Shown here: piece after piece, positions 15-44,740 of the stretch
Numbering within the stretch: position 1 is the first letter of the stretch
Layout of the letters: each line of letters begins with the position of its first letter
NCBI GenBank assembly: GCA_028875725.1
Contig: JAPPCR010000006.1
Location: forward strand, 563,786 to 627,785
Direction of reading: 5' to 3'
Source of the DNA: Acidobacteriota bacterium
GTDB lineage: Bacteria; Acidobacteriota; Thermoanaerobaculia; Multivoradales; Multivoraceae
DNA length: 64,000 nt
Program-made: the position numbers and the translations under genes
Notes under the pieces: generated by a model
What the model was told of the DNA's origin: nothing
Databases searched by the model: none
What the model saw: the letters and a program-made list of their open reading frames with translations, nothing else

Positions 15-2825
15 GTGATCAATCGCTTCGAGTCGACGTCAGCGGGCACCGTGACGTCCGACGTCGCGACGAACGTCATGTCCGTCAACACGAACTACTA
101 CAGCTCTTTGGCCCTGTTGCCTGGCGTGACATCGGACGGCGACTTGGCCGATGAGTATCCCGGGTCAAACGGTGCGCGCTGGATGGAAGGGGCCGTCTTC
201 GTGGACGGAGTTGACACTACTTACACCCGTCGCGGTGGCTCGCGGATGTACCTGCCACACATCGCAGTCTCTTCGACCACGCTGCAATCGACGACCGGCG
301 GCGCGGAGTACGGCCGTGCGGTCGGCGGCATCACCAACGTCGTGACCAAGTCGGGAACCAACCGGTTCCACGGCGACTACTTCGTTCATCGCCAGCAGGG
401 CGACTGGGTTTCCGAGTACAAGTCCCATCCGGAGTTGGCAGAACGATGGAATTGCAGGCGTCGCGCTGTCGTGCAACCCCAGAACGACTGGCTCCGGCCG
501 TCGTGTCAGCCGGACTTCTTCCATCGGAACGAACGGGAGAAGGACTACTCGGACCTCACATTGCAGGGCTCGATCGGTGGCCCGATTGCCCGTAACAAGG
601 CCTGGTTCTTCGCAGCCGCGGCCGATACCAACACGTTCAGCAGCCAGGAGACCTTCAGCGGCGATATCGTGGACAACAGCGCCTACGTGGGCAGCCGGAT
701 CGCGAAGCTGAACTTCCAGCCGAGTCCGTCGCACGCGCTAGCTGCGTACTACACGACCTCGCCGCTCGATGTCACCTTTGTTCTCGGCGACGTTCCTTCC
801 GACCGCTACACGGCTACGCCGCACGAGTTTGGCGGCGAACTGGTGACGGGAAGCTGGAACTGGAGTGCGCGCTCCGACCTGTTCCTCGAGTTCAAGCTCG
901 CTCTCCACGACTCCAGCGAGCACAAGGCTCTCAACGCCGGCGAAGGCTATGACCTGGAGTCCGCGCTCGCGGAGAAACAGCAGGATCCGCGCTACCCCGC
1001 CAACAACCAGGGACCCCACAGCCCCGGCAACAACTTCCACGGCTACGTCGGATATCGGGGAGGCGAACAGCATTGGTGGAACGGTTGGATTCTGGACAAC
1101 GGTTTCGGCCGCAACGACTATCCACGTGATCAGGCGAACGCTCGTGTGACCTGGTTTGCGAGTGATGCGCACGAAGCCCTCTTCGGCTTCGACTGGCAGG
1201 ATGTCGCCTGGGAACAGAACCTGCAGCGAAACAACCTCTACGTGGGGAACGTGTTCGACGCCTCGAGCCCGTCCGGTTTCGATAGCTGCAGCATTATCCG
1301 CATCGGCTACCGCCTCTGCTATCTGGAGGACTACAGCCCGGCCGACCTCGAGGGAGAGCCGATACTCCACGGCACGAAGTCGTCCAACACGGCCTTCTTC
1401 GCTCAGGACCGGTTCTCAGCCGGGGATCATTGGACGTTCAACCTCGGACTCCGGTACGAAGACCAGGTCCACCTGAACGACGTCAGGCGCACCGTCATCG
1501 ATTCCCAGGACCTCTCGCCGAGGATCTTCGCCGCGTACGACTTCCGAGCCGACGGTCGGACTCTGCTAAGCCTGAGTCTCGGCCGGGCGTACCAGCACCT
1601 GCCGCAGGATCTCTCCAACAACCATCTCCTGGAAGGTTGGAACGGTACGAATGCCTTCGACCGATTCATCTACTGCGACGATCTTGCGGCTTTCTTTCTC
1701 AGGCATGTGTGCAGGGGAGTTGGTTACACCGGGCTGATCGGCAAGCTGCGCCCCGGCACGATGTGGCGCCAGATTGACGCGGGTGTCATTCCTCAAGTGG
1801 ATATCGACCCCTACTTCAAGGATGAGATCGATCTGAGTCTGCGGTGGGCGTTGAACCCCAGGTGGTACTTCCAGGCCAGCGCAATCTACTGGACTTTCGA
1901 GAACTCCATCGGCACAACCGAGCAGAGACTTCCCGACGGGAACTACTTCCGGTTCACGGAAAACTACAAGGACTACGAGAAGGTCCTCGGTCCACTCGGC
2001 GTCGTAGATCCGGAGGTGCTGGCTAACTTCGATGAAGGAAGGCGGACCTACAGGTCGCTGCAGCTTCAACTGAACCGGAATTTCAGGAACAACTGGGCGC
2101 TTTTCAACAACCTGACGTACGCCGACGCCAAGGGCCACTTCTGGGGCGGTCTGTTCAACAACACGAACTCGGACTACGGGCGGAACCTCGATGTAGTCCT
2201 GACCCAAGGGCACATCGATGGTTGCGCGGCGGACCAGCTCGTGCTGGAGGGCGGCCAGCCGGTCATTGACGCGAACGGCAACCAGATCGTGAAGCCGTAC
2301 CCGGTAGATTGCCAGGCGATCCTGGAGCCGTTCCTCGGTCAGGCAGTGTCCACGATCTACCGCTACGGTACGGCACGGGAGAACAACGAGTACGTGTGGA
2401 ACAGCTTCGGCTGGAAGACCTGGAACCTCGGCAACACAGGCCACTCGTTCACTTTGGGCGGTTCCTTCTCCTGGCGTTCCGGCAAACCCTGGCAGCGCCA
2501 GGGCGGGGCATTTCTAGGAGGCTGCGACAACGCGTTTGAAGGCTGCGACCCGGAGCAGGCGATCGTGGGTCGAGGCACAGCACTCTTCCTGGAGCCGCGT
2601 GGGACCCGAGACCCGTTCAATCCGATCTGGAATCTCAACCTCACCGGAATATGGAGCTTCCGTATCCGGGGGGACTTCACCGGGAATCTCCGTGTCGATG
2701 CCACCAATGTGACGAACAACCAGGACGGCCAGCGAGTCAACGCTCAGGGTGAGTTCGGTTCGTCGCGTTACATTGACTGGCAGCGTCCCCGACGGTTCTC
2801 GCTGTCTGCGACGTTTAACTTCTAG
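15..2825 (+). CDS. TonB-dependent outer-membrane receptor, Oar-like (5'-truncated by window edge)
   Basis: The ORF is open from the window start. Plug-like segment FVDGVDTTYTRRGGSRMY. Long beta-rich body ending in a C-terminal aromatic residue (..SATFNF), typical of OM beta-barrels. Resembles Acidobacterial Oar-type TBDRs. Confidence 0.65.
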   Translation: MINRFESTSAGTVTSDVATNVMSVNTNYYSSLALLPGVTSDGDLADEYPGSNGARWMEGAVFVDGVDTTYTRRGGSRMYLPHIAVSSTTLQSTTGGAEYGRAVGGITNVVTKSGTNRFHGDYFVHRQQGDWVSEYKSHPELAERWNCRRRAVVQPQNDWLRPSCQPDFFHRNEREKDYSDLTLQGSIGGPIARNKAWFFAAAADTNTFSSQETFSGDIVDNSAYVGSRIAKLNFQPSPSHALAAYYTTSPLDVTFVLGDVPSDRYTATPHEFGGELVTGSWNWSARSDLFLEFKLALHDSSEHKALNAGEGYDLESALAEKQQDPRYPANNQGPHSPGNNFHGYVGYRGGEQHWWNGWILDNGFGRNDYPRDQANARVTWFASDAHEALFGFDWQDVAWEQNLQRNNLYVGNVFDASSPSGFDSCSIIRIGYRLCYLEDYSPADLEGEPILHGTKSSNTAFFAQDRFSAGDHWTFNLGLRYEDQVHLNDVRRTVIDSQDLSPRIFAAYDFRADGRTLLSLSLGRAYQHLPQDLSNNHLLEGWNGTNAFDRFIYCDDLAAFFLRHVCRGVGYTGLIGKLRPGTMWRQIDAGVIPQVDIDPYFKDEIDLSLRWALNPRWYFQASAIYWTFENSIGTTEQRLPDGNYFRFTENYKDYEKVLGPLGVVDPEVLANFDEGRRTYRSLQLQLNRNFRNNWALFNNLTYADAKGHFWGGLFNNTNSDYGRNLDVVLTQGHIDGCAADQLVLEGGQPVIDANGNQIVKPYPVDCQAILEPFLGQAVSTIYRYGTARENNEYVWNSFGWKTWNLGNTGHSFTLGGSFSWRSGKPWQRQGGAFLGGCDNAFEGCDPEQAIVGRGTALFLEPRGTRDPFNPIWNLNLTGIWSFRIRGDFTGNLRVDATNVTNNQDGQRVNAQGEFGSSRYIDWQRPRRFSLSATFNF

Positions 2826-2914: not shown

Positions 2915-3394
2915 ATGAGTCTTCTGGACACTAGAATGGTTGTGTTGGTAAGCTGCGCCGTACTCTCGGCTGGGTTTGCGGTTCCCCAGGGGAGTGGGGA
3001 AACCGAAGTAGGCACTGAAGCAACTGAGCCACGTAGAGTTAGTGACAAGACGAATGTTGAAGCTCGAGGTGGCGGCAGGGGTGAGCCAACAGCAGTCTTG
3101 GAGTTCTTGAGCTTTCCAACGCCTGGTGGCCCAGCTCCAGCTGACAACTGCACAGTCGGTATTGACCAGGAGGGACTTCCCGGAAACTGCTTCACACACA
3201 TGTCGCTGATTTGGGTAGCGGAGCATCAACTCAATCTCTGCCTGAGCGCTTTGCAGAATGTTGACGTGGCGGCGGGTTCTTGCGATCAGTATCTTGGTGC
3301 GATGGAGTCGGCACGTGAGGCCTACAATCAGTGTCGAAGCGTGAGTAGTGGCCCGACGTACGAGTGGGTGTGTCCGGTCACAGATTCGGGTTAG
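2915..3394 (+). CDS. hypothetical small secreted Cys-containing protein (lower-GC gene)
   Basis: N-terminal hydrophobic signal-like segment (MVVLVSCAVLSAGFAVPQG). Six Cys. Local GC is clearly lower than the flanks. Good RBS-like gggagaaaggagaatg upstream. No recognisable family. Confidence 0.4.
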   Translation: MSLLDTRMVVLVSCAVLSAGFAVPQGSGETEVGTEATEPRRVSDKTNVEARGGGRGEPTAVLEFLSFPTPGGPAPADNCTVGIDQEGLPGNCFTHMSLIWVAEHQLNLCLSALQNVDVAAGSCDQYLGAMESAREAYNQCRSVSSGPTYEWVCPVTDSG

Positions 3395-3800
3395 CGGTTG
3401 GGGTAGCCCGGGTTTCTTGGACGTTCGTGTTTAGGAGTGATGCAGCTTCGCGGTAGCTGTTCTCGAAGTTGACGGGTGAGCGGTAGCCGATCGCGGAGTG
3501 ACGTCGATGCGTGTGTACCAGCCTTCGACGTACCGGGCGAGCTCGGCCCTGGTTTCGGCGTAGTTTCCGGAAGCTGGCCTGGTCGAGCAGCTCGCATTCG
3601 AGGCTGGCGAAGAAGCTTTCGACCATCGCGTTGTCGTAGCAGTCGCCGACGGAGTCCGTCGAGAGGGCGACGCCGGCGGCGCGGCAGCGCTTTCCGAAGG
3701 CTAGCCCGCATGTTTCACCGATGCGGCCTGCGGGCTGGTTTCGGGGCAGCGGAGACGCTTGGGCGTTCGGCGGTGGGCTGGCGGTGGTCGGCTGAGCTTG
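3378..3800 (-). mobile_element. IS3-family transposase (OrfB/rve integrase core) C-terminal remnant, degraded
   Basis: The translation contains GDCYDNAMVESFFASLECELL...RRHSAIGYRSPVNFE, the conserved C-terminal end of IS3 OrfB transposases. The upstream part is out of frame or missing. No intact orfA/orfB and no inverted repeats identified. Confidence 0.6.
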
Positions 3801-3849
3801 CCCCGGTTTCGTGGACACTTCATCCTTGGAGTAGGAGGTATCCGCGATG

Positions 3850-4115
3850 CCGAGAGCGCCCCTGCTAGGCTCTCTCCGTTGCGCGGGTCGTGGAGTGCTG
3901 GCAGGAGCGGTGAGTGCCGTCGCGGATAGGCAGCTACGTTTCGTAGGCGAAGGTCTCCCCCGGTGGCTGCGCTTCCGAGACGAATCGGGATCCCGGTGCC
4001 GAGATTCTTCGAGCGCTCACCGTAGTTGTCGGCCGCCCAAGTGCGAGAATCCAGGTGGTTCGTCCACCGGCCGTCGCGGGGCAGTAGCGTCAGGTCGCCG
4101 ACGGGAATCGTGGGC
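3850..4115 (-). pseudogene. C-terminal fragment of a VWFA-related Acidobacterial-domain paralog (frameshifted, with an in-frame stop)
   Basis: Reverse-strand translation gives PVGDLTLLPRDGRWTNHLDSR...IPIRLGSAA in one frame and GETFAYET* in another. These match the conserved C-terminus of the downstream paralogs (LLPMDGRWMNELEFR...IPI...GDTFVYETEL). The N-terminal roughly 450 aa are absent. Confidence 0.5.
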
Positions 4116-4259
4116 TAGAGGTCGGCACGAGGAGCTTCCGGAGCCTGGCTTTCCCCGGCGTGCCGCAGTGCACTTCCAGAACGTCCTTGCCGGGCAGGCC
4201 CGAACATCAAGTGAGCCGTGGGCCAGCATCCGGTGCCCCCTGTTTGGGCCGGTTCGGCG

Positions 4260-5876
4260 CTACCTCGGCCCGACGGTGCCTCTCGTCGACAGCAGCTCGC
4301 CGGTCAGCGGGTCGTAGACCGCCGCGACGAAACGATGTTCGCGCTTGCGGATCTTGAGGTCCATCTCGAAGATGAAGAAGTCGCCGCGCGCGGGTTCCTT
4401 CGGGATGACCACCGGGATCTTCACCGCGGGCGGCGCCGCCTGGTCGCCCCACTTGTTCATCAGGCGGATCCTGAACTCCAGTTCGTTCATCCACTGGCCG
4501 TTCACGGGCAGCAGTTCCACGTCTTCAAGGGGAAACGCAATCGTCATCGGTACGTCGAGCTGCCGGAATCCCGCCTTCTTCGGCTCGCCGAAGCTGACTT
4601 CGAGCGATTCGGCGCCGGGGGAACCGCCGAGCAGCAGGGCGCCCTCGACCAGCATCCCCACCTCGGTCGCCCTGGACATGTCCAGATAGTGCTCCCGTGT
4701 TCTCACCCGGAGGTCGGGGTGGCCGGGTAGCCGCACGGCGATGTCGTGAAGCCGGTCGTCTTCGTTGCGGGGAGGTTCGAAGCCGAGCCAGTAGTAGGAG
4801 CGGGTGTCCGCCGCCGTCTCCGCGAGGGCCTTCTTGCTGAAGGAGTTGATCATCGGCAGGCCACCCGTCTCTTCGGCCAGAAACTGGAGGACGTTGTGGA
4901 ATCGCCGCTCGGGTACCGCCCACCAGCTTGCGTACCCTCCGATGGCGCCGGTGAAGACTGGCGCCACGCCTGCCGCACCGAAGCCGGCGATCGGAGGACC
5001 TGGCGAGCCCTGGAAGCCGGGAGTATCGATCGGGTAGAGGCTGTAGCCGACCAGGTTCGCGGCGTTCACGAGAGGCCCGTAGAGCCGGTCGAGTGTTACC
5101 CCGCCGGACGCCGCCGCGTAGGCCGACCTGAAGTTCCAGGTGTCGGACACGGTGGTCCACCCCTCGATCAGCAACAGCATGACCTTGCGGCCCGGCGCGT
5201 TGGCAAAGCTGCGCACGGCGCCGGCGGCGGCCATCACCGATCGCCGGGTTTTGTCGCCTCGCTCCGAGCCCATGCCGTGCCGGTACAGCAGACCGTACGG
5301 CCTTCGTTTCCTTGCCTCCAGCAGCGCGGTCTCGATGTCGGCGCGGTCGCCGGTCCAGTCCGTGATCAACACGAGTTCCCGGCCGTCGTGGGCCACGACG
5401 GCGACGCGGTCGGCGGGGTCGAGCTGGACGAGGTCCTGTTCGAGGCGGTTCAGCACGCGGTTCCTGCGCTGCTTGATGGCGAACAGGTCGTCGATGAAGA
5501 CGAGGTAGCTCGTGCCGACCGGCTCGTCCGGAGTCAGGGCGGGAACGTTGCCGACGCCTTCGTCGGACGCTTCCAGCGCCCGGCCCTCGTCGACCTCCGT
5601 GAAGTAGTCGACCGCCACGGGCCGGCGGTCTACGCGGAGTTCGAAGTCTCCCGGCTGGAGTCCCCGGATGCGGTTTCCGCTCCTGTCCGTCACGACGACT
5701 TCGACGTTGACCACGCGGACGTCAATCACGTCGGAGAACAGGTCCGGCAGCGGACTGTCCTGCGCGGCCGCCGGTAGCGCGGTCAGCAGGCATGTGACAG
5801 TCGCCGCGGCGCGGAGTCCTGGCAGGTTCGGCTTCATGCTCATCAGGTTACTCTCGTCTTTCGGCCGGGAGATCAT
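4260..5876 (-). CDS. secreted VWFA-related Acidobacterial-domain protein (TIGR03436-like), paralog 1
   Basis: Signal peptide. N-terminal motif LFSDVIDVRVVNVEVVVTDRSGNRIRGL..DFEL.VD..PV.V.YF, characteristic of the acidobacterial VWFA-related family. VWA-like middle (YLVFIDDL...RVAVVAHDG). C-terminus conserved with the neighbouring paralogs. Confidence 0.7.
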   Translation of the reverse strand: MISRPKDESNLMSMKPNLPGLRAAATVTCLLTALPAAAQDSPLPDLFSDVIDVRVVNVEVVVTDRSGNRIRGLQPGDFELRVDRRPVAVDYFTEVDEGRALEASDEGVGNVPALTPDEPVGTSYLVFIDDLFAIKQRRNRVLNRLEQDLVQLDPADRVAVVAHDGRELVLITDWTGDRADIETALLEARKRRPYGLLYRHGMGSERGDKTRRSVMAAAGAVRSFANAPGRKVMLLLIEGWTTVSDTWNFRSAYAAASGGVTLDRLYGPLVNAANLVGYSLYPIDTPGFQGSPGPPIAGFGAAGVAPVFTGAIGGYASWWAVPERRFHNVLQFLAEETGGLPMINSFSKKALAETAADTRSYYWLGFEPPRNEDDRLHDIAVRLPGHPDLRVRTREHYLDMSRATEVGMLVEGALLLGGSPGAESLEVSFGEPKKAGFRQLDVPMTIAFPLEDVELLPVNGQWMNELEFRIRLMNKWGDQAAPPAVKIPVVIPKEPARGDFFIFEMDLKIRKREHRFVAAVYDPLTGELLSTRGTVGPR

Positions 5877-7477
5877 GGTCGGCCCGGTCTGGGGTTGACA
5901 ACCCCGCGGGCCGACACCAGCGTCCTGTCCGTGAGCGGATCGTAGACGGCCGCGACGTATCGGTACTCGCGCTTTCGCAGGCGGAGGTCCGTCTCATACA
6001 CAAAGGTCTCGCCCGGCGCCGGCGCCTCGGACCTGACCACAGGGACCTTCTGAACCAGCTTCCTGGAATGGATGTCCCATTTATCCACCGCCGAGATCCG
6101 GAACTCGAACTCGTTCATCCACTTCCCATCCATGGGCAGCAGGGTCAGCTCATCGAGCGGGACGACTACTTCCACCGGGACGGAGACCCTGAGGAATCCG
6201 GCCTTTCGGGGCGTCCCCAGGCGCACCGCCAGGGGGTCGGCGCCGGGAGCGTTGCCGAAGAGCATCGACGCCTCGAGGCGCATGTCGATCTCTGTGCTCT
6301 TCGACATGTCCAGGTAGTGCTCGCGGGACCGCACGCGGAGTTTCCTTTGTCCGACCAGCCGCACCCTGATGTCGTGCAGCTCGTCGTCCCGGCTCTGCGG
6401 AGCGTCGAAGCCGAGCCAGTAGTACGAGCGTGTGTCCGCCACGGTCTCGCTGAGCGCCTTGCTGCGGAAGGCGTTGAGCATTGGCCGCCCTCCCGTTTCG
6501 TCGGCGAGGAAGCGAAGAACGTCGTGTTGCCGCTCCTCGTACGAGCCGATCATGAGCGCCTGCATCGACGGCCATGGCGGCGGGTACATTGTGCTGCCGC
6601 GCGTGTCGCCCCCTGAGTAGGCGTAGTAACCGCCCGGGGGAATCGGTGGGAGTCGCCCGTAGGAACGTTGCCTGTACTGCAGACCCGCAACGTCGACGGG
6701 GTAGAGGCTGTAGCCGACCCGGTTGGCGGCATGGACCAGCGGGCTGTACAGGCTGTCGATGTTCGGTCTGGCGAGTCCCGAACCCAGGACATCCCAAACC
6801 GCGCTCGGGGCGCTCCAGCTATCCGCCAGCAGGAGCATCACCTTGCGGCCCGGTCCACGGGTGACGCTTCGTATGGTTGCCGTGGCCGCCATGACGGCGC
6901 GCCTGGTGGCTTCGGCGCTCTGGCGGCCGAACGTCGGCCGCATCTGCGCTTCCAGGAGCGCGGTGCGGAGCTGGTAGTGGGAGTTCGTCCAGTCCGTCAG
7001 CCGGGAGACGCCCGTTCCGTCGAACGCGACGATCGCCGCGCGGTCCGCCGGGTTCAGCAGGCGGAGATCCTGGTCCAGGCGGCTCAGCACCCGGTTGCGG
7101 CGTCCGCGGATGGCCGACAGGTCGTCCACGAAGATCAGGTAGTTCGTACCGACCGGCGCGTTGTGCGCCAGAGACGGTACGTCCGCGACGCCGTCGCCGC
7201 CGGCGGTCCTCGCGTAACCCTCGTCGACCTCGGTGAAGTACGCGATGCGCACCGGCTGGCGGTCCACGAGGAGCTCAAAGTCGTCTGGCTCGAGTCCGCG
7301 AATCCGGTTCCCCTTCCTGTCCGTGACAACGACCTCGACGTTGACGACGCGAACGTCGACCGAGTCGGAGAACAGATCCGGCAGCGACGATTCCTGGGCA
7401 GTTGCGGGGAGCGCGGCCAGGACCAGTGCGGTCGTGAAAGCCGTGCCGAATCTGAATGGGGACAATGGCCTGATCAT
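5873..7477 (-). CDS. secreted VWFA-related Acidobacterial-domain protein, paralog 2 (start set at internal Met MIRPLS, 4 bp overlap with upstream gene)
   Basis: Same N- and C-terminal conserved blocks as paralog 1. The six-frame ORF extends to 7714, but the signal peptide begins at MIRPLSPFRFGTAFTTALVLAALPATAQ. Contains a Pro/Tyr/Gly-rich insert. Confidence 0.65.
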   Translation of the reverse strand: MIRPLSPFRFGTAFTTALVLAALPATAQESSLPDLFSDSVDVRVVNVEVVVTDRKGNRIRGLEPDDFELLVDRQPVRIAYFTEVDEGYARTAGGDGVADVPSLAHNAPVGTNYLIFVDDLSAIRGRRNRVLSRLDQDLRLLNPADRAAIVAFDGTGVSRLTDWTNSHYQLRTALLEAQMRPTFGRQSAEATRRAVMAATATIRSVTRGPGRKVMLLLADSWSAPSAVWDVLGSGLARPNIDSLYSPLVHAANRVGYSLYPVDVAGLQYRQRSYGRLPPIPPGGYYAYSGGDTRGSTMYPPPWPSMQALMIGSYEERQHDVLRFLADETGGRPMLNAFRSKALSETVADTRSYYWLGFDAPQSRDDELHDIRVRLVGQRKLRVRSREHYLDMSKSTEIDMRLEASMLFGNAPGADPLAVRLGTPRKAGFLRVSVPVEVVVPLDELTLLPMDGKWMNEFEFRISAVDKWDIHSRKLVQKVPVVRSEAPAPGETFVYETDLRLRKREYRYVAAVYDPLTDRTLVSARGVVNPRPGRP

Positions 7478-7479
7478 GC

Positions 7480-9153
7480 CTACCTCGGCCTGATCGTTTC
7501 GCTGGCAGACAGGATCGTGCCGCTCACCGGGTCGTGGACGGCCACCACGATGCGGTGTTCCCGCTTTCGGAGCACCAGTTCCGTCGTGTACCACCAGTGC
7601 TGGCCAGGCTCCGGTTCCGCCGGGCCTGAGATGCGGACCGTCTCGACCGGCGTCTCGGAGCGGTCGCCGGACTCGTTGATCACGCTGACGCGCAACTCGA
7701 CCTCGTTCATCCACAGGTCGCCCATCGGGAGGAGGGTGATGTCGTCGAGCGGAATGAACACCTTCATCGGCACCAGGATCTTCCGGCCCCGGGCGGGTTG
7801 CGAGGCGCCGAACTCGACCGTCAGTGTTTCCTTCCCCGCTACGCCGCCGAAAAGCAGGGATCCCTCGACCATCATGGTCACTTCAGTGCTCTTCGACAGA
7901 TCGAGATAGCTTCGCCGCGACCTGACCCGAAGATCGGGACGGCCAACCAGTTGCACTTCGATGTCGTGGAGCGTGTCGTCCTCATTGCGAGGCGGCTCGA
8001 ATCCGAGCCAGTAGTAGGAGCGGGTGTCGGTCGCGGTCGCGGCCAGGGCGACGTCGCGAGAGGCGTTGATCATCGCAAGCCCGCCGGTCTCGCGGGCGAG
8101 ATAGCCGAGGGCAGCTTCCTGGGACCACTCGCTGTAGAGATCGGTCGGGAGGGCGGAGAGGTTCGGTTCCAGCGCCAGGCTCGGACTTGGAGTGTAGGTC
8201 GCGGTCGGGTCGCTGGTTCCGGCGGGGGCGTTCGTGAAGGCCGGATCGAGCCCTGGAAGGTCGACGGGGTAGAGCGTGTAGCCGACCAGGTTGGCGGCGT
8301 GGACGAGGGGGCCGTAGATGCTCTCGATGCTCGGAGGCCGCCAGTCGACCTGATCGAAGTTGTCCCTGTTCCACTCGGGTACGCCCCAGCCGTCCGTCAG
8401 CACGAGCATCACCTTGCGCCCCGGCGGATCGGCGTAGCTCCGGAGGGTGGCCGTGGCGGCGAGGACGGACTGTTGGATCTCACGCTCCCGCTTGTTCAGA
8501 TGCAGCGTCGACATTGCTCGCCGGATACCTTCGCGGGAGCGGACGAGAGCCTGCGATGTCCGGTCCGCCAGTGCCGGTTCGACAACGGCCGGTTCGATGT
8601 CCACGATTCGCATGATGCCCAGCGCGTCGCGCTCGCGCGCCTCGCTGAGAGCGTCGCGGAGTACGTCCCGCGAGTCGGTCCAGTCCGTCAGTTCGGTGAC
8701 GTTCTGGCCGTCGAACGCGACCAGGGCGACGCGATCGTGGGCGCGGAGCTTCCCCAGGTCCTGCTCCAGTCGGTCAAGTACCCGGTCGCGGTCCCGCCTG
8801 ACCGCGAAGTACTCGTCGATGAAGACGAGGTAGTTCGTGCGCACCGGTTCGCCGGGGACGAGGGAAGACACCGTCCCCGCCGCATCCCCCGGGGCACTCG
8901 TCCGGGCGATTCCCCCGTCGACCTCCGTGAAGTACTCGATAGGCACGCTCTCGCCGTCCACGCGAAGCTCGAAGTCCGCCGCGTCCAGGCCTTGTACCCG
9001 ATTGCCCCTCCTGTCCGTGACGACCACCTCGACGTTGACCACGCGGACATCGATCGTGTCGGAGAACAGCTCCGGCAGCGGCGACTCCTGCGCGGCGGCC
9101 GGCAGTGCGGCCAGGACCAGGGCGATCAGGGATGGGGCTTGGAGTCTCACCAC
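7480..9153 (-). CDS. secreted VWFA-related Acidobacterial-domain protein, paralog 3
   Basis: Signal peptide MVRLQAPSLIALVLAALPAAAQE. Conserved DVRVVNVEVVVTDRRGNRVQGL..DFEL block. Conserved C-terminus ...REHRIVVAVHDPVSGTILS. Confidence 0.7.
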   Translation of the reverse strand: MVRLQAPSLIALVLAALPAAAQESPLPELFSDTIDVRVVNVEVVVTDRRGNRVQGLDAADFELRVDGESVPIEYFTEVDGGIARTSAPGDAAGTVSSLVPGEPVRTNYLVFIDEYFAVRRDRDRVLDRLEQDLGKLRAHDRVALVAFDGQNVTELTDWTDSRDVLRDALSEARERDALGIMRIVDIEPAVVEPALADRTSQALVRSREGIRRAMSTLHLNKREREIQQSVLAATATLRSYADPPGRKVMLVLTDGWGVPEWNRDNFDQVDWRPPSIESIYGPLVHAANLVGYTLYPVDLPGLDPAFTNAPAGTSDPTATYTPSPSLALEPNLSALPTDLYSEWSQEAALGYLARETGGLAMINASRDVALAATATDTRSYYWLGFEPPRNEDDTLHDIEVQLVGRPDLRVRSRRSYLDLSKSTEVTMMVEGSLLFGGVAGKETLTVEFGASQPARGRKILVPMKVFIPLDDITLLPMGDLWMNEVELRVSVINESGDRSETPVETVRISGPAEPEPGQHWWYTTELVLRKREHRIVVAVHDPVSGTILSASETIRPR

Positions 9154-9158
9154 GTCGC

Positions 9159-10874
9159 CTACTTGCGTTCGCTCACTGTATCCGCGGGATCTATCGCCCC
9201 CTGCGCCGAGAGGATCGCACCAGAGAGCGGGTCGTAGACGGCAGCGACGTACCGGTGCTCACGCCGGCGCATCACGAGTTCCGTCTCGTAGACGAAGGTG
9301 TCCCCGGGCGATGGCGCCCGCGCCCCGTGGATCGGGATCTTGTCAATCGGCGTCTCGGAGCGGTCGCCGTGTTCGTCGATCAGCGTGACCCGGAACTCCA
9401 GTTCGTTCATCCAGCGACCGTCCATCGGCAGGAGCTGAACGTCGTCGAGAGGAATCGACACCTCTATCGGTACCGAGATCTTCCTGAACCCGGCCTTGCG
9501 AGGCCTGCCGAAGCGCGCTTCAAGGACGTCCTTGCCCGGCGAATCGTCGAACACCAGAGCGCCTTCGACGAGCATCGTGACTTCGGTGCTTCGGGAAACG
9601 TCCAGGTAGTGCTTCCGGGTGCGAACGCGCAGGTCCCGGCGCCCGGGCAACCGCACCTTGATGTCGTGCAGCTCGTCGTCCTGGTCGCGGGGCGCTTCGA
9701 AGCCGAGCCAGTAGTAGCTGCGGGTGTCCTCGGCGGTCTCTCCGAGCGCTCGGTCGCGGGACGCGTCGAGCATCGGCAGTCCGCCCGTCTGTCTGGCCAG
9801 GAACCGGAGGACCTCGTGTCCGTTCTCTCTCCGGCACCACCCCTGGAGCGACGGGCTCGGGATTGGGCGTGGCCGGGTGGACGTGCCCAGGGTCCAGCCG
9901 CGGTCGTCGTTGTAACGGGTGTCAACGCCGGCTTGGCGCTGCACGTAGACCGAGTCGCGAGTTGAGGAGATGGTCCGGGGCGAGCCCCACCAGAGTGGGG
10001 CCGACGAACAGGCGACCATGTCCCTGAATCCGGGGAGATCGATCGGATACAGGCTGAAGCCGACCTGATTCGCGGCGTGAACCAGGGGGTTGTACAGGCT
10101 TTCCGTGTCGCCCCAGGGTGGAGCGGCCTCCATGATCGTCAGCCCGCGGGCAGGCTGGCTCCAGCCGTCCGCCAGGAGCAGCGCCACCTTGCGGCCGGGA
10201 GCGACGGCAAGAGCCCGTACCGTTGCGGTAGCGGCCATCACGGCTTTCCGCACCCGATTCTCCTGGGCTCCCCAGTCGCGCAGCCTCGCGCGGCCACCTG
10301 CTCGGCGCTGCCGCGCCAGCACCAGGGCCTCGCTGATCTCCTGGCGGGAGTTGGTCCAGTCGGTCAGCCGGGAGACGTTCCTGCCATCGAAGGCGACGAC
10401 GGCAACGCGATCCGCGGGGTTCAGCAGAACGAGATCCTGCTCCAGCCGGCTCAGCACTCGATCGCGGTGCTGCCGGACCGCGTGCAGGTCGTCGATGAAG
10501 ATGAGGTAACTCGTGCCCACCGGTTCGTCCGTTACCACCGACGGCACTCTCGCGACATCGTCGTCCAGCGAGCCTCGCGCCACGCCCTCGTCGACTTCCG
10601 TGAAGTAGCTGATCGGTATCGGCTCCCGATCGACCAGGAGTTCGAAGTCCGAGGCCGCGAGACCGCGGATGCGGTTGCCTCTCCTGTCGGTGACGACGAC
10701 TTCGACGTTCACGACCCGAACGTCAAGTACTTCGGAGAACAGATCAGGCCAGTGTTCTTGCTGTCCCCAAACGGGGACGGCTGCGATACAGAAGGTGACA
10801 GCGGCAGCGAAGCCGCGGCGCATCGAGAACGTCCCTTGTCTCTCGCCGGTCAGAACAGAGTCCTGTCGCAGCAA
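9159..10874 (-). CDS. secreted VWFA-related Acidobacterial-domain protein, paralog 4 (start may be the internal Met at about 10823)
   Basis: Signal peptide (MRRGFAAAVTFCIAAVPVWGQQ). Conserved N- and C-terminal blocks. Large Trp/Pro/Ser-rich variable insert in the middle. Confidence 0.7.
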   Translation of the reverse strand: MLRQDSVLTGERQGTFSMRRGFAAAVTFCIAAVPVWGQQEHWPDLFSEVLDVRVVNVEVVVTDRRGNRIRGLAASDFELLVDREPIPISYFTEVDEGVARGSLDDDVARVPSVVTDEPVGTSYLIFIDDLHAVRQHRDRVLSRLEQDLVLLNPADRVAVVAFDGRNVSRLTDWTNSRQEISEALVLARQRRAGGRARLRDWGAQENRVRKAVMAATATVRALAVAPGRKVALLLADGWSQPARGLTIMEAAPPWGDTESLYNPLVHAANQVGFSLYPIDLPGFRDMVACSSAPLWWGSPRTISSTRDSVYVQRQAGVDTRYNDDRGWTLGTSTRPRPIPSPSLQGWCRRENGHEVLRFLARQTGGLPMLDASRDRALGETAEDTRSYYWLGFEAPRDQDDELHDIKVRLPGRRDLRVRTRKHYLDVSRSTEVTMLVEGALVFDDSPGKDVLEARFGRPRKAGFRKISVPIEVSIPLDDVQLLPMDGRWMNELEFRVTLIDEHGDRSETPIDKIPIHGARAPSPGDTFVYETELVMRRREHRYVAAVYDPLSGAILSAQGAIDPADTVSERK

Positions 10875-10895: not shown

Positions 10896-11327
10896 CTAGC
10901 CGGGCGCCTCAATGCGGATCTGGGATCCGAACGGGGCGAAGTCGCGGACATTCCACGTGAGGATCGTCTCCGCTCTTGCCTTGAGCGCCGTTCGAGCGAT
11001 GAGCGTGTCGTAGGTCCGGCCGCCGACGGTTTCGAGCCTTACGGCTTCGGTCAGGGCAGCCCAGGTCTCGGTTCCGGTCAGTTGGACGACCGGCGCGGAA
11101 CTCCAGTTGGCCTCGATCGCCGCGAGGGCGTCGCTTGCTCGCAACCTGTGGGGAGCTGGCAGTCGCGTCAGCACGGAGTAGGTCTCCACGAGTGAGTGGC
11201 CTGCCAACACGAGCGTGTCGCCCCGGTTCGATCGCCGATCGAGTTCCGCGCGGGTGCGTTCGTGGTGCTCGTGCCAGGAACTGATCGCTGCGACCAGGCA
11301 GGACGTGTCGCAGAGGTACCGGGTCAA
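10896..11327 (-). CDS. vapC: type II toxin VapC (PIN-domain ribonuclease)
   Basis: 143 aa. PIN-like acidic residues (DTSCLVA... D..). 4 bp overlap with the upstream small antitoxin gene. Confidence 0.6.
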   Translation of the reverse strand: MTRYLCDTSCLVAAISSWHEHHERTRAELDRRSNRGDTLVLAGHSLVETYSVLTRLPAPHRLRASDALAAIEANWSSAPVVQLTGTETWAALTEAVRLETVGGRTYDTLIARTALKARAETILTWNVRDFAPFGSQIRIEAPG

Positions 11328-11596
11328 TCGCCAGGACGCTCGCGGTCCTGCCGCGTGCGGATTTCATCGATCACAGTGGCAACTTCCGATGCGGTCAGCG
11401 GAGCCGGTGTCTCCCCGGTTGGAACGGCGACGACCACCGAGCCGCGGCGTTCGAGTTTCACCTCGAGGGGCTCCGGCTCGATCTGAACGCAACCGCCGGT
11501 CAGGCGAAAGCGAACCTGGGTGCCTGGATGAAGATGCGCGGCGTCCCGGATGGCCTTGGGTACGACCAGGCGGCCTGCTTTGTCGATCATCGTCAT
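11324..11596 (-). CDS. vapB: antitoxin VapB (AbrB/MazE/SpoVT-type swapped-hairpin DNA-binding domain)
   Basis: 90 aa. MTMIDKAGRLVVPKAIRD is the typical AbrB/MazE N-terminus. Overlaps vapC by 4 bp. Confidence 0.6.
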   Translation of the reverse strand: MTMIDKAGRLVVPKAIRDAAHLHPGTQVRFRLTGGCVQIEPEPLEVKLERRGSVVVAVPTGETPAPLTASEVATVIDEIRTRQDRERPGD

Positions 11597-11646: not shown

Positions 11647-13005
11647 TTAGCGGCGAACCTGCGCGAGCCTCCTGCGAAGTCCGGCCGCCTCGGGACTTCC
11701 CGCTTCCTCGGCCAGGTCGAGCGCCTTCCGGAACTGCCCGGCGGCGGCGTCCGGCAGCCCGCTGCTCACCATTGCTTCTCCGACGTTCGTTAGCAACTGG
11801 ATGAGGCCGTCGCGGGTGGGCGGATCCTGGGGCCGCTCCCGGTAGGCGCGATCCAATACGTCGACGGTGCGGACGACGTCGCCACGCTCGGCGCTGACCA
11901 GGGCGACGAGCAGCATCATGCTGACGTCGCTCGCGTCGAGTCGCAGAGCCTCTTCGGCCTTGGCGAGCGCCCCGCTCAGGTCGCCGGTCTGAAAGAGCGC
12001 CCGCGCCAGAAAAGGCGCCACGCCTTCGAGTTCCGGGTGCAGTTCGGACGCGCGGTGCGCGGCGGCGAGCGAGCCCGCCGGATCGCCAGCGGCGGCGAGC
12101 ACTTCGGCAAGTGCGAAGTGGAGTTCGGGCCTCGAGGCGTCGACATCGATGCCGGCACGGAGCTCACGCCGCGCGAGGTCGAGTTCGCCGTGGACGCGGT
12201 GAGCGTTGGCGCGCCGCAGATAGCTGCGGGCGTCCAGCGCCAGGTCGTGGACGCTCGAGCGGATCGGGTCGTCGCGGTAGTTGATGCGTCCCAGCGAGCG
12301 TGCGGCGGTGGCGATCTGCTGCCCGCGCTCGCGGTCTCCTGCCCGCGCGTACGCCTGGGCCAGGGTGACCGCGAAGGAGCGATTCTCGGCCGCGAGGTCG
12401 CGGGCTCGGGACAGATGCCGAATGGCGGCGTCCGAATCGCCGGCGGCGAGGGCGAGGCGGCCCAGCCCGGCGTGGGCGTGGGCGTTGGCCGGGTCGAGTC
12501 GGGCCGCTTGCGCGTACTCGCGGTTGGCGGCGTCGAACTGCCCGGTCCGCTCGAGCGCCTCGGCGAAGCGGACCCGGGCGGGTGCGTAGTCCGCGTCGAG
12601 GGCGAGGGCCGCGCGGTAGAACTGCAGGCTGTCCGCGGCGGAGCGTTCGTCGATCAGGGCGGCGAGCAGGTAGGGCCAGCGGAACGTCCCCGGCGAGAGC
12701 TCGTGGCCTCGGCCGTAGGCGGCGATGGCCTCGTCGGTGAAGGTGTGAGCCTCGAGGACCATGCCGTATCGGCCCCAGGCGTCGCCGTTTCCCGGGTCGG
12801 CGCGGAGGTCCGCCTGAAGCGAGGCGAGGCGCTGGCGAACGGCGGGCTCGGCGCCGTCGAGCCGGGGTGCGGGGATCTGCTGGGCGGTGAGGGGGGCAGT
12901 GGTGAGGAGTACGAGGAGGATCGCCGCGACGATGTCGCTTAGGGCGAGTGCCGGCCAGAAGGCAGGCGCACCGGCAGTCAGCCTGGCCGACATTGCGCGA
13001 GTCAT
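11647..13005 (-). CDS. tetratricopeptide-repeat protein with N-terminal membrane/signal anchor
   Basis: Multiple TPR-like repeats (AxxxYxxAL..P....A...LG pattern). Hydrophobic N-terminus. Stop codon 3 bp upstream of the CRTAC1 gene start. Confidence 0.6.
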   Translation of the reverse strand: MTRAMSARLTAGAPAFWPALALSDIVAAILLVLLTTAPLTAQQIPAPRLDGAEPAVRQRLASLQADLRADPGNGDAWGRYGMVLEAHTFTDEAIAAYGRGHELSPGTFRWPYLLAALIDERSAADSLQFYRAALALDADYAPARVRFAEALERTGQFDAANREYAQAARLDPANAHAHAGLGRLALAAGDSDAAIRHLSRARDLAAENRSFAVTLAQAYARAGDRERGQQIATAARSLGRINYRDDPIRSSVHDLALDARSYLRRANAHRVHGELDLARRELRAGIDVDASRPELHFALAEVLAAAGDPAGSLAAAHRASELHPELEGVAPFLARALFQTGDLSGALAKAEEALRLDASDVSMMLLVALVSAERGDVVRTVDVLDRAYRERPQDPPTRDGLIQLLTNVGEAMVSSGLPDAAAGQFRKALDLAEEAGSPEAAGLRRRLAQVRR

Positions 13006-13007
13006 CG

Positions 13008-14726
13008 TCAGTGGCCCTCGCCGCGGACTAGCGTTACGACCTGGTCGGCGGCAGCGCCGTCGAAGCTCTCCACCAGACCGTCGGGCCAGACGACATCGAA
13101 GCTCTCCACCGATTCGGCCGCGCCCAGGCCGAGGTGGGCCGTGGCGGGTCCGGCGGAGAGGTAGCTGCCGGGCGGCAGCGCGTGCAGGAGCCGCGGACCG
13201 TCCGGCGTACGGACCGTGATCCGGGCGCCGATCGCCTCGCGGTCGAGGCGGGGGTCGAACGCGCGGACCCGCAGCCAGTTCGCAACGGTCGGTTCGTCGC
13301 TGGCGGCGCCCGCGTCAATCGTCAGGTTGCGGAGAATCCGTGGCGCTCCGTCGAGGTTGGCGATCACGAGGTCGAGGTCGCCGTCCCGGTCCAGGTCGGC
13401 GGGTACGAGCGCCCGGCTGAGCCCGAGTTCGGTCCACGGCCGCTGGGCCGAAGCGTCGGCGAAGCGGCCTTCGTCGTTGACCAGGAGAAGGTTCGGTTCG
13501 GCGTACTCGGACCAGAACGCGGGAGGAGCGTCGACGCCACCGGGCGTAGCTAGCGCCGACGGCCGCCGCTTGACCGCTCCGTTCGCCACCGCGAGGTCGA
13601 GGTCGCCGTCGTTGTCGGCGTCGAAGAAGGCGGTGCCGAAGCCGGTCAGATCGAGGCTCGCCGCGCCGAGTTCGGTGTCGATCGTCGCGTCCTCGAAGCC
13701 GGGCAGCATGAGGTTGCGGTAGTAGGTGTTCGTCTCGGTGATCAGGTGGGTCACGAACAGGTCGAGGTCCAGGTCGAGGTCGGCGTCGCCGGTGGCGATG
13801 CCCATTCCCGCCTCGCTGTTGCCCCAGCGGTTGAACGCGGAGCCTTGCAGGACGCCGTCGTCCAGGAAACGCCCACCGCCCTGGTGGGTCCAGAGGTTGT
13901 TCGGGTCGGCGTCGTTCGCGACGTAGATGTCCACTTCGCCGTCGTGATCGAAGTCCGCGGCGACGACACCGAGGCCGGCGTCTGCCACCGCGGTGATGCC
14001 GGCGGCGGCGCTGACGTCTTCGAACCCGTTACCGCCCAGGTTGTGGAGCAGGACGTCGCTCAGGCCCTCGAACTCGGTGGGGCCACAGAAGTCCCGCCTT
14101 CCGCCGTGCTGCGAGCAGACGCGCGCCGGGTCGAACGCAACGTAGCGGGCGACGTAGAGGTCGAGGTAGCCGTCGCGGTCGTAGTCGAGCAGGGCGGCGG
14201 ACGAGGACCAGCCGGGAACAGCCGCGTTCCAGGCCGCGGAGCGGTCAGCGAACACGCCCTTGCCGTCGTTGAGGAAGAGGCGGTCCGGCCCGACCCGGGT
14301 CACGTAGAGGTCGAGGTCGCCGTCGTTGTCCAGATCGCCGACGGCGCAGCCCATGCCGTCGCCCTCCAGTCCGGCGGCCGTCGTGGCGTCTGTGAAGTGG
14401 CCGGCGTCGTGCTGGACGTAGAAGCGGTTGCCGCCGGCCGCCGGGGCGACGACGTACAGGTCGAGGTCGCCATCGCCGTCGGCGTCGAACACCGCCAGGC
14501 CGCCACCCATCACCGCCGGCATGGGGTAGGTCGAGTCCGTGCCGCTCGGCAGGACGTGGTCGATGCCGCTCTCGGCTGTCACGTCGACGAAGCGGACGGC
14601 GGGCGTGGCCTCCGGGCCGGCTCCCGGCGCTTCCGCCGGCGCCACACCGGAGTCGGGCGGCGCCGAACAGGCAGACGCGCTAGCCAGAACCAGGCCCGCA
14701 ACCCGGGCCGCGCGGTTCCGCGCCAC
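13008..14726 (-). CDS. CRTAC1-family lipoprotein (FG-GAP/VCBS repeats plus C-terminal ASPIC/UnbV domain); start set at GTG preceding lipobox
   Basis: Repeated FDADGDGDLDLYV / DLDNDGDLDLYV / FDHDGEVDIYV FG-GAP motifs. C-terminal ASPIC/UnbV-like block (RITVRTPDGPRLLHALPPGSYLSAG...FDVVWPDG). The six-frame ORF runs to 15119, but a lipoprotein signal (ARNRAARVAGLVLASASAC) begins at GTG 14726. Confidence 0.65.
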   Translation of the reverse strand: MARNRAARVAGLVLASASACSAPPDSGVAPAEAPGAGPEATPAVRFVDVTAESGIDHVLPSGTDSTYPMPAVMGGGLAVFDADGDGDLDLYVVAPAAGGNRFYVQHDAGHFTDATTAAGLEGDGMGCAVGDLDNDGDLDLYVTRVGPDRLFLNDGKGVFADRSAAWNAAVPGWSSSAALLDYDRDGYLDLYVARYVAFDPARVCSQHGGRRDFCGPTEFEGLSDVLLHNLGGNGFEDVSAAAGITAVADAGLGVVAADFDHDGEVDIYVANDADPNNLWTHQGGGRFLDDGVLQGSAFNRWGNSEAGMGIATGDADLDLDLDLFVTHLITETNTYYRNLMLPGFEDATIDTELGAASLDLTGFGTAFFDADNDGDLDLAVANGAVKRRPSALATPGGVDAPPAFWSEYAEPNLLLVNDEGRFADASAQRPWTELGLSRALVPADLDRDGDLDLVIANLDGAPRILRNLTIDAGAASDEPTVANWLRVRAFDPRLDREAIGARITVRTPDGPRLLHALPPGSYLSAGPATAHLGLGAAESVESFDVVWPDGLVESFDGAAADQVVTLVRGEGH

Positions 14727-23081: not shown

Positions 23082-23861
23082 ATGAAGACGATGTTGACGG
23101 TTGTCGCCGCAATGCTGTTGGTGATGGGAACGGTCGCCTGCGTCGAGATCCGGGTAGGCGCCCCGGATGACGCCGAGACCGAAGAGGCCGCGGTCGAACC
23201 GGCCGCGACCCTGAACGAGCTCAGTGCCGAGGAAGTCGAGGCAGGCTTCCAGTCGCTCTTCGACGGCGAGTCGCTGGAGCACTGGCGCGGCTTCAAGCTG
23301 GACCAGGTGCCGGCGGGCTGGTCGGCAGCCGACGGCGTGGTCCACTTCCTGCCGCCTACCGGCGACGACGCCGGACCGCGAGCCGACCTGCTGACCCGGG
23401 AGCAGTACCGGTCATTCGAGTTCCGCTTCGACTGGGCCGTAACGGCGGGAGGCAACAGCGGCGTCATGTTCCACGTCTCCGAGGACGCCCCGGCCTCCTA
23501 CTCGACCGGCCCGGAGTTTCAGATTCTGGATGATGACGGCCACCGGGACGGTCAGCGCATGGAGACTTCCGCGGCCTCTAACTACGCCCTTCACGCTCGG
23601 CAGGGCGGTGAGCTGGTACCGGTGGGCGAGTTCAACACTTCCGCCCTGCGGGTGGAAGGAAACCGGGTCACGCACTGGTTGAACGGCGAGAAGGTGGTCG
23701 AGTACATGCTCTGGGACGACGACTGGAAGGCGCTGGTTGAGGCCAGCAAGTTCGCTTCGATGCCCGGCTACGGGATGATGGAGACGGGCCACATCGCGCT
23801 CCAGGACCACGGCAACGAGATCTGGTTCCGCAACCTCCGCATCCTCGTGCTGCCTGATTGA
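23082..23861 (+). CDS. DUF1080 (3-keto-disaccharide hydrolase-like, LamG-fold) lipoprotein
   Basis: Lipobox MLLVMGTVAC. Motifs FDGESLEHWRG...GNSGVMFHV...GHIALQDHGNEIWFRNLRI are typical of DUF1080. Confidence 0.55.
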   Translation: MKTMLTVVAAMLLVMGTVACVEIRVGAPDDAETEEAAVEPAATLNELSAEEVEAGFQSLFDGESLEHWRGFKLDQVPAGWSAADGVVHFLPPTGDDAGPRADLLTREQYRSFEFRFDWAVTAGGNSGVMFHVSEDAPASYSTGPEFQILDDDGHRDGQRMETSAASNYALHARQGGELVPVGEFNTSALRVEGNRVTHWLNGEKVVEYMLWDDDWKALVEASKFASMPGYGMMETGHIALQDHGNEIWFRNLRILVLPD

Positions 23862-25869: not shown

Positions 25870-26583
25870 ATGCCGAGTGCTCGCAAAGGCCAGGTGAGCC
25901 AAAGCAGCCGGATGGCGATTCCCACACATGGCCCATCGTGCCGGACTTGGACTTATCCGACGGCTTGCTGGGAATGCGGAAAAGCCATCCAAATCCTGCA
26001 GTGCACCTGTGGCAGCGTCGTGCTGTTGGAGGCCATGGGCTGGCCATGGCCACGGCACGACTGCCGTTCCCATAGTTCCGCATCCGGGGGTGTCGGCGGT
26101 AGCGGTCTGAGCGGCTGGACGGCAGTTAACAAACTGCGGCGCCTGGGGATCCCCATCACCGATGCTGCCATGGAGAAGATCTTCCCGGAAGAGAGATCAG
26201 GACCGCAAGTTACTCGTCCAGTTGAGGACACGAAGAAGGTCGACCCCTCGGGCCATGGGACGAAGGACCTTCTGGCCGTCTTGCGGGAGTTGCAAGAGAG
26301 GACACGTCGCACGGCGCTCATAGAGAGCCTCCCGGTGATGGGGAAGAAGCTGCTTGGCCTTGAAGCTCACGTCCGCTACTGGCAGGTGACGCTGGTTCGA
26401 AACGACGTGCAGCCGAATGAGAGCTACACAGCTTTCATTCCAGCGCCACTCGTGCGGACTCTACGGAGGGGCGTGATGGTCGCAGCGAAGATCGTGGCCC
26501 GTGGGCACGGCGAACAGGCGTGCTGGCTCGTCTCGGCCATCCGGGGTTGTGTGATCCCGGTGAAGTCTAGGAGCGATCCGTGA
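25870..26583 (+). CDS. hypothetical Cys-rich (zinc-ribbon-like) protein at the edge of the defence island
   Basis: Begins 40 bp after the Rieske-TPP stop, where GC drops. CxxC...CxC cluster (CRTWTYPTACWECGKAIQILQCTCG). Converges on and overlaps the brxA 3' end by 17 bp. Confidence 0.35.
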   Translation: MPSARKGQVSQSSRMAIPTHGPSCRTWTYPTACWECGKAIQILQCTCGSVVLLEAMGWPWPRHDCRSHSSASGGVGGSGLSGWTAVNKLRRLGIPITDAAMEKIFPEERSGPQVTRPVEDTKKVDPSGHGTKDLLAVLRELQERTRRTALIESLPVMGKKLLGLEAHVRYWQVTLVRNDVQPNESYTAFIPAPLVRTLRRGVMVAAKIVARGHGEQACWLVSAIRGCVIPVKSRSDP

Positions 26584-29367: not shown

Positions 29368-29381
29368 GCGTCCTTGAAGCC

Positions 29382-37771: not shown

Positions 37772-37777
37772 GAGAAG

Positions 37778-42836: not shown

Positions 42837-42847
42837 GTGGTTCGTAC

Positions 42848-44722: not shown

Positions 44723-44740
44723 CTGGTACCCTGCGCCGCC

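Follow-up and report, generated by a model that had tools for sequence, protein, structure and literature searches.

Introduction

TIGR03436 (acidobact_VWFA) is a family of von Willebrand factor A (VWA)-related proteins, described in TIGRFAMs as restricted to Acidobacteria and as forming a large paralogous expansion there. We analysed four consecutive genes of this family in a marine Acidobacteriota genome. The window, as we call the whole stretch of 64,000 nucleotides analysed, belongs to contig JAPPCR010000006.1, and the four genes are long minus-strand open reading frames (ORFs) at positions 4260-10823.

In metal-binding VWA domains a D-x-S-x-S motif after strand beta1, together with a Thr and an Asp in the beta4-alpha5 loop, coordinates the metal at the metal-ion-dependent adhesion site (MIDAS). 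Integrin beta-I domains carry extra loops inserted on their ligand face. The Gram-positive pilus-tip adhesins SpaC, RrgA and GBS104 have inserted 'arms' close to the MIDAS face, which probably determine what they bind. The Bacteroides Bat (aerotolerance) operon, which is envelope-related, has several tandem VWA genes beside a TPR gene; it also encodes a MoxR ATPase together with a DUF58 protein, and its BatA and BatB are membrane-anchored with an intact MIDAS.

The array proteins resemble TIGR03436 over positions 5-321 of the 324-position profile (protein residues about 35-415) and differ from it by a C-terminal extension of ~140 residues and by the lack of D-x-S-x-S. With ITIH1 and the integrin beta headpiece, where the beta-I domain sits in the hybrid domain, they share a VWA domain flanked on both sides by strands that apparently form one sandwich. 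Likeness to integrin beta extends to loop insertions on the presumed ligand face and to an FG-GAP propeller gene nearby, whereas the MIDAS, ADMIDAS and SyMBS residues, the PSI/EGF domains and the membrane anchor are missing. An exported VWA domain combined with immunoglobulin-like (Ig-like) sandwiches is shared with the pilus-tip adhesins (Foldseek match 6m48_B, E 7.5e-7), but SpaC, RrgA and GBS104 keep MIDAS, LPXTG signals, isopeptide bonds and pilus assembly, none of which was seen in the array proteins. ArnB and Sec23-Sec24 have a VWA-type trunk with a beta sandwich in common with them, used there as a MIDAS-independent protein-interaction scaffold; those proteins are cytoplasmic regulators or coat proteins, whereas the array proteins carry predicted signal peptides, lack the zinc finger and gelsolin domain, and are only 7-9% identical. 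The array shares with the Bat operon its tandem VWA genes next to a TPR gene. No MoxR or DUF58 gene was found near it; its neighbours are the ASPIC, TPR and TonB-receptor-like genes, VapBC and an IS3 fragment.

We propose, as a moderately probable reading, that the array is a strain-variable repertoire of exported, metal-independent VWA-fold binding modules that are co-transcribed and evolve by birth and death. The four genes would be co-transcribed and translationally coupled, and their products Sec-exported and independently usable. Each product would consist of the TIGR03436 unit (beta/VWA/beta) followed by a helix and, at the C-terminus, an additional Ig-like sandwich. On this conserved scaffold, lineage-specific loops on the ligand face would set differing specificities, and copies would be gained and lost between strains at a fixed site. 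The modules would bind or adhere outside the cytoplasm, in the periplasm or at the cell surface. Family membership, fold, MIDAS loss, duplication age, purifying selection and variable copy number are established below; export route, loop placement and binding role are what we infer.

Four tightly packed, diverged genes

The array consists of the following genes.

g1, 4260-5876, minus strand: 538 amino acids (aa), ATG start; ortholog group A; long-form TIGR03436 VWA-fold protein, predicted to be exported
g2, 5873-7477, minus strand: 534 aa from MIRPL; paralog of ortholog group E
g3, 7480-9153, minus strand: 557 aa, GTG start; paralog of ortholog group B
g4, 9159-10823, minus strand: 554 aa from ATG; paralog of ortholog group H; first gene of the array

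An earlier description made from the letters of the DNA (the sequence-only reading) had listed four consecutive minus-strand genes of 538-571 aa. The four genes stand, with their lengths corrected to 538, 534, 557 and 554 aa for g1 to g4; an independent gene caller run on the public contig gave the same values. The g4 product reaches 571 aa only if translation starts at an upstream TTG at 10874. A mechanical ORF extending g2 to 7714 overlaps g3 and was rejected, having no support from homologs or from the independent gene call. Packing is as tight as had been reported: g2 and g1 overlap by 4 bp, the stop of g2 lying on the start of g1, and 2 bp and 5 bp separate g3 from g2 and g4 from g3, respectively. 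The conserved N- and C-terminal blocks quoted in that description are visible in the alignment of the four proteins, and the match of every copy to the paralog profile (E about 1e-280) goes far beyond chance.

Pairwise identity among the four paralogs is 50-55% for protein and 60-65% for nucleotide sequence. Synonymous divergence (NG86 dS) between pairs is 0.9-1.3, and omega (dN/dS) is 0.33-0.49. DNA repeat families in the array recur with a 1.6-1.7 kb period at 60-83% identity, and no near-identical or recombination-grade tract was found among them. The array is not an assembly artefact, since the exact g3 protein is present on 9 contigs (ENA and Logan assemblies) and an independent metagenome-assembled genome (MAG), L005, has the same four-gene order at 90-95% identity. 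We conclude that the four genes are real, old and diverged duplicates under purifying selection, as the sequence-only reading had held in describing diverged copies and no recent duplication. A scan for sigma-70 promoters and terminators gave results at or below shuffle expectation.

A long-form subfamily of TIGR03436

Membership in TIGR03436, which had been suspected from resemblance, was borne out by profile search: g1, g2, g3 and g4 scored 129.5, 142.1, 150.2 and 131.2 bits against a cutoff of 81.25, and relatives at other loci scored 148-225 bits. No array protein reached the threshold of a Pfam VWA family; VWA_2 gave 22.9 bits for g3 and 18.9 bits for g4 (cutoff 27) and no match for g1 or g2. 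A profile search of PDB sequences returned no match, and tblastn against PLSDB plasmids yielded no canonical family members.

We modelled g3 with AlphaFold2 (AF2) from a 41-sequence alignment (pLDDT 74.5, pTM 0.70). We divide the protein as follows.

Residues 1-21: predicted signal peptide
Residues 22-37: conserved linker
Residues 38-87: beta strands
Residues 106-376: VWA domain
Residues 380-418: beta strands
Residues 421-435: helix
Residues 445-554: Ig-like sandwich

Residues 106-376 alternate strand and helix in the manner of a VWA-type (Rossmann-like alpha/beta) domain. A Foldseek search of the model against the PDB gave 129 matches at E<=1e-3, and VWA domains made up most of the top matches. 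These included ArnB, SpaC, ANTXR2, ITIH1, TFIIH p44/p34, integrin beta headpieces and Sec23/24 (E 5e-7 to 1e-4), the best being ArnB 8s05_B (E 5e-7). The integrin beta and ITIH1 matches (3vi3_D, 3ze2_D and 6fpy_A; E 6e-6 to 1e-4) have 8-10% identity and TM-scores of 0.2-0.25 on the query. Structure prediction, proposed in the sequence-only reading as a test for a VWA fold and a MIDAS motif, returned the fold; the motif is absent (see below).

When residues 377-557 were modelled alone, the C-terminal sandwich stayed confident and the post-VWA strands lost confidence or became disordered. Since the latter are confident in the full model and not in isolation, the model suggests that they pack on the N-terminal strands as one sandwich, as in the integrin hybrid domain or ITIH. 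The C-terminal sandwich is similar to Ig-like domains of a generic kind (ApaG, GH2 Ig-like domains, transglutaminase barrels) and, with the helix, forms the ~140-residue extension beyond the TIGR03436 model. Searching with the sandwich gave 1297 cluster representatives (E<=1e-3). In the 150 matches listed, it lies at or near the C-terminus, most of the proteins are ~530-630 aa long, and the shorter ones look like fragments. Because the sandwich is C-terminal in proteins of this size and has so many cluster representatives, the 'long form' is a sizeable TIGR03436 subfamily with a fixed architecture.

All 71 related loci, taken from GTDB species genomes, belong to Acidobacteriota, in agreement with the restriction previously stated for the family. 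They are mostly from Thermoanaerobaculia, 'Ca. Multivorans'/Multivoraceae or MAGs labelled Holophagales, with one from Vicinamibacteraceae. Source names were likewise Acidobacteria, except for one MAG labelled Chloroflexi. The relatives seem to be partly sponge-associated, to judge from isolate names that look like sponge metagenome bins.

The canonical metal site is lost

Strand beta1 of g3 (residues 106-113) is followed by D-E-Y-F-A, and the other copies have DDLFA, DDLSA or DDLHA at this point. Most of 159 full-length relatives read F[IV]D[DE]x[FSH][AS] at the MIDAS position, and D-x-S-x-S occurs in none of the 159. The position of the third Asp, in the beta4 loop, is variable (D, E, G, A or Q), and a distant member scoring 225 bits on TIGR03436 has V-D-N-F-N-T at the MIDAS position. 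Alignment with hhalign to an approximate sequence of the integrin alphaM I-domain gave a weak local match at beta4 (probability 0.09), pairing 'VLTDG' of g3 with 'VITDG' of alphaM, too weak to fix the MIDAS positions. Judged from these motifs, the canonical MIDAS is lost in the array proteins and in the 159 relatives, so any ligand binding would be metal-independent.

Export signals and a conserved N-terminal segment

As read from the sequence, a basic n-region at each N-terminus leads into a hydrophobic core (~15 residues) and an A-x-A/V-W-G site, with a conserved Q after it. The signal peptides already reported for each protein are thus recognisable, and the four proteins probably carry Sec/SPase I signals. 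Few parts of the family are as well conserved as the segment that follows (Q-E-S-P-L-P-D/E-L-F-S-D-x-I-D-V-R), in which F30 and D35 do not vary and Q22, L26 and P27 hardly do. This segment was modelled with low confidence and could be a linear docking or sorting motif.

9043-9090, minus strand: conserved post-signal segment of g3 (residues 22-37), with equivalents in all paralogs

Variable copy sets at a fixed site

Clustering at 65% identity resolved about 12 ortholog groups at the array site. In syntenic loci the flanks are constant, with FG-GAP/ASPIC and TPR genes upstream on the same strand and a convergent TonB-receptor-like gene downstream. Between them, the number of VWA genes varies from 1 in L030 to 7 in L016, and L038 shows about 9 segments. 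The groups occur in collinear but differing subsets. Both the window and L005 have H-B-E-A, to which the window adds a decayed group G copy; other loci have F-D-B-E-A, H-D-B-E-A, F-B-E-A-J-B-G, B-A, D-A, A-J, K-N-D-A-I or A alone (L015 and L030). Group A (g1) is a nearly universal core copy, present in 30 relatives.

The decayed copy lies next to a transposase remnant.

3378..3818, minus strand: IS3-family transposase fragment, C-terminal end of the integrase core (Pfam rve_3; NCBIfam transpos_IS3 positions 291-369 of 369, below cutoff)
3863..4200, minus strand: relic of a fifth paralog, frameshifted, covering the C-terminal ~120 residues of a group G-type copy

The relic was recognised by hmmsearch (29.7 bits, E 5e-9, profile positions 439-520) and by tblastn (two frames, 47-51% identical to group G); its segments 4122-4195 and 3867-3894 belong to DNA repeat families D6 and D9. 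In other genomes group G is the last gene of the array and adjoins the TonB-receptor-like gene; here the relic is directly beside the IS3 fragment. In L005, the closest relative, only about 95 bp lie between g1 and the TonB-receptor-like gene.

Members of the family also occur elsewhere. The same genomes have a second locus with one or two copies of group C (42-47% identity) beside 2-oxoacid:ferredoxin oxidoreductase genes. The four copies and relic, together with this locus, confirm the paralogous expansion of TIGR03436 within a genome. In distant soil Thermoanaerobaculia a triplet of very diverged long-form paralogs, P-L-M (25-42% identity), is present in 3-4 genomes. We conclude that birth and death of copies at one fixed chromosomal site, and not concerted evolution, has shaped the array.

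The sequence-only reading had suggested a functional multi-component set, and the four proteins might assemble into one hetero-oligomeric envelope complex. This would agree with the translational coupling and the conserved order of the genes, with the recurrence of the B-E-A trio in about 9 loci and with the fixed P-L-M triplet; the N-terminal motif (Q..LP..F....DVR), conserved yet disordered, might act as an assembly peptide. Close relatives, however, have A alone, A-J, B-A, D-A or up to 7 copies, which leaves no fixed stoichiometric set. The second locus of the same genomes can hold a single group C copy, and the window tolerates the loss of its fifth copy. We therefore rejected an obligate four-subunit set, the copy sets of close relatives being variable, and consider a hetero-oligomeric complex of the four proteins unlikely.

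Variable loops on a conserved scaffold

Divergence between ortholog groups is concentrated in three loops of the VWA domain (g3 numbering).

Loop A: residues 176-220
Loop B: residues 254-275
Loop C: residues 299-336

Between groups, the loops are 9-22% identical and the scaffold 53-75%; loop lengths range over 6-56 (A), 10-28 (B) and 2-71 (C) residues. Within groups the loops are 41-89% identical, and each lineage therefore keeps its own loops. From the model, all three would lie on the face where MIDAS normally sits, at the C-terminal strand ends and helix tops.

Ortholog omega was obtained for five groups. It is 0.19-0.24 for the scaffold, and the median for the loops is 0.33-0.83, which is 2-3.5 times the scaffold value. 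For group H (g4), loop omega exceeds 1 in 46% of the ortholog pairs, on the basis of only 13 pairs and about 81 codons. Because of these medians we call the loops relaxed or fast-evolving; positive selection is undemonstrated, omega being below 1.

The other possibility raised in the sequence-only reading was diversifying (positive) selection, as would be expected of a variable surface antigen or a phage-receptor decoy. Hypervariability of three loops in sequence and length, their excess omega, the group H pairs above 1 and the strain-variable copy number all point this way. Nevertheless, selection of this type went undetected in the paralogs, the ortholog scaffold and the loops, and pervasive positive selection was rejected with a median loop omega below 1 in all five groups. 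The loops are conserved within ortholog groups, the copies share no recombination-grade identical tracts, and the group H signal comes from the few codons just mentioned. PADLOC models matched none of the four VWA proteins (E<=0.01) and not the FG-GAP/ASPIC protein; the TPR protein had two marginal matches of 13 bits. We give an array shaped by diversifying selection little chance.

Flanking genes and possible partners

The genes on either side of the array are these.

15..2825, plus strand: TonB-dependent-receptor-like outer-membrane beta-barrel (Pfam OMP_b-brl_4, TonB_dep_Rec_b-barrel), cut by the window start
10896..11327, minus strand: VapC-type PIN toxin (Pfam PIN on the public contig; TIGR00028 39.8 bits, below cutoff)
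11324..11596, minus strand: AbrB/MazE-type antitoxin, 90 aa (TIGR01439 34.3 bits against a cutoff of 28.3)
11647..13005, minus strand: TPR-repeat protein, 452 aa (Pfam TPR families); hydrophobic signal or anchor at the N-terminus; conserved flank upstream of the array
13008..14645, minus strand: FG-GAP/VCBS and UnbV_ASPIC protein (CRTAC1-like), 545 aa (Pfam FG-GAP_3, UnbV_ASPIC)

The FG-GAP/ASPIC gene is 2 bp from the TPR gene and is likewise a conserved upstream flank on the strand of the array; its product is a probable lipoprotein (LASASAC). The two VapBC genes (10896-11596) overlap by 4 bp and form an insertion between the TPR gene and g4. The pair is present in L005, L009, L025, L033 and L077 and absent from L006-L008.

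Neighbours at other loci of the wider family differ. In addition to the oxidoreductase genes beside group C, the soil triplet is followed by a small ORF, of 147 aa in L069 (8868-9311) and of 149 aa in L065 (13415-13864), where its membrane-protein product matches Pfam Holin-X superfamily III (PF07332). Other long-form homologs, 50% identical to g3, are directly followed by a touching or overlapping Peptidase_S9 (prolyl oligopeptidase family) gene, at 9754-11724 in L076 and 9731-11815 in L079 and L080, with a gene for a type VI secretion system (T6SS) Tle1-like lipase domain nearby. A conserved family-wide functional partner was rejected in view of these differing neighbours (oxidoreductase, Holin-X-like, Peptidase_S9).

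The constant upstream genes could be read in terms of an integrin-like pairing, in which the VWA proteins, resembling beta subunits in having a VWA domain set into a hybrid-like sandwich, would dock on the alpha-like FG-GAP propeller lipoprotein, with the TPR protein as chaperone or adaptor and the VWA partners of the single propeller interchangeable. The ASPIC/FG-GAP, TPR and VWA genes are on the same strand and all apparently exported; their adjacency is kept in every syntenic locus and, rearranged, in the distant Multivoraceae L015, L034 and L043; and Foldseek aligns the g3 model with integrin beta headpieces and ITIH1. Yet MIDAS, a site at the centre of how integrin beta works, is missing, and family members in the oxidoreductase, Holin-X-like and Peptidase_S9 contexts have no FG-GAP gene nearby. 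The synteny spans fairly close relatives and could reflect inheritance, not function, and in the window the VapBC pair separates the TPR gene from the array. Overall, such a pairing seems improbable to us. Its more specific form, in which one FG-GAP propeller lipoprotein with a TPR helper pairs with strain-variable MIDAS-less VWA proteins whose loops set specificity, is a slimmer prospect still. If true, an integrin-like system would amount to a combinatorial adhesion repertoire with which sponge-associated Acidobacteriota bind host matrix or polymers.

On the downstream side, the full TonB-receptor-like protein, available from the public contig, has 1057 aa and a CarboxypepD_reg N-terminus. 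Its gene is convergent with the array, and every syntenic locus has it as the downstream flank. This would fit VWA proteins that help the adjacent CarboxypepD_reg/TonB-receptor-like protein, by substrate capture or in some other way, much as surface binding proteins do in Sus-like systems. But the convergent gene is outside the array operon, the VWA proteins have no lipobox by which they could be anchored at the surface, and family members elsewhere have no such neighbour, which makes an accessory role very improbable. The receptor-like gene is 98% identical to that of L011/L032 and only 78% to that of L005, whereas the VWA genes are closest to L005 (90-95%); this mosaic relatedness suggests recombination across the array boundary.

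Finally, a recent duplication or assembly artefact can be dismissed, as it is refuted by 60-65% nucleotide identity, dS about 1 and the same array in independent assemblies and MAGs, and nothing was found in its favour.

Standing and significance of the proposed repertoire

Several points weigh against a repertoire of exported binding modules. No ligand, partner or conserved neighbour was found across the wider family loci compared, and a literature search found no paper or experiment addressing TIGR03436, consistent with its earlier description as functionally uncharacterised; one sponge-symbiont paper mentions VWA, generically, for a different phylum. Evidence for localisation stops at Sec export, the four proteins having neither a lipobox nor a recognisable C-terminal sorting signal. 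The placement of the loops on one face follows from textbook VWA topology and secondary-structure order, not from measured coordinates. Two of the three loops are predicted to be disordered (pLDDT below 50), and the hypervariable loops may be functionless spacers.

The family itself was already known, and the array is a fairly ordinary one: it represents no new kind of system and settles no open question. What is added here is the long-form architecture, the loss of MIDAS, the restriction of divergence to loops and the behaviour of the array as a variable cassette with a relic copy. As TIGR03436 is a large lineage-specific expansion in Acidobacteriota, annotated without function, the locus gives a comparative handle on it: a scaffold free of a metal site, three lineage-specific loops, an unmodelled C-terminal Ig-like domain and natural variants with 1 to at least 7 copies. 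Together these make work on localisation, loop swaps and binding screens possible.

Other features of the window

A BREX-type defence island occupies 26567-41650 on the minus strand, with a G+C fraction of 0.60-0.64 against 0.67-0.72 around it. Its genes, each with a strong PADLOC match, are as follows.

26567-27322, minus strand: BrxA
27319-29355, minus strand: PglZ
29382-31565, minus strand: HerA, of a SIR2-HerA pair between PglZ and PglX
31562-32908, minus strand: SIR2, of the same pair
32905-35892, minus strand: PglX methyltransferase
35882-37771, minus strand: Schlafen AlbA_2/HATPase_c_4/Fic-like_C gene
37778-41650, minus strand: BrxC

Although this island is about 16 kb away, a defence-system role for the array was rejected, as no PADLOC match was obtained. 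At the edge of the island an ORF of 1119 aa (42389-45748, minus strand), also without a PADLOC match, could be a BrxL/BrxHI-like or novel accessory gene. Between the array and the island, a gene at 23861-25831 (plus strand) encodes a Rieske [2Fe-2S] domain fused N-terminally to a full three-domain thiamine-diphosphate (TPP) enzyme, an unusual architecture, and a second TPP enzyme is encoded at 16099-18090.

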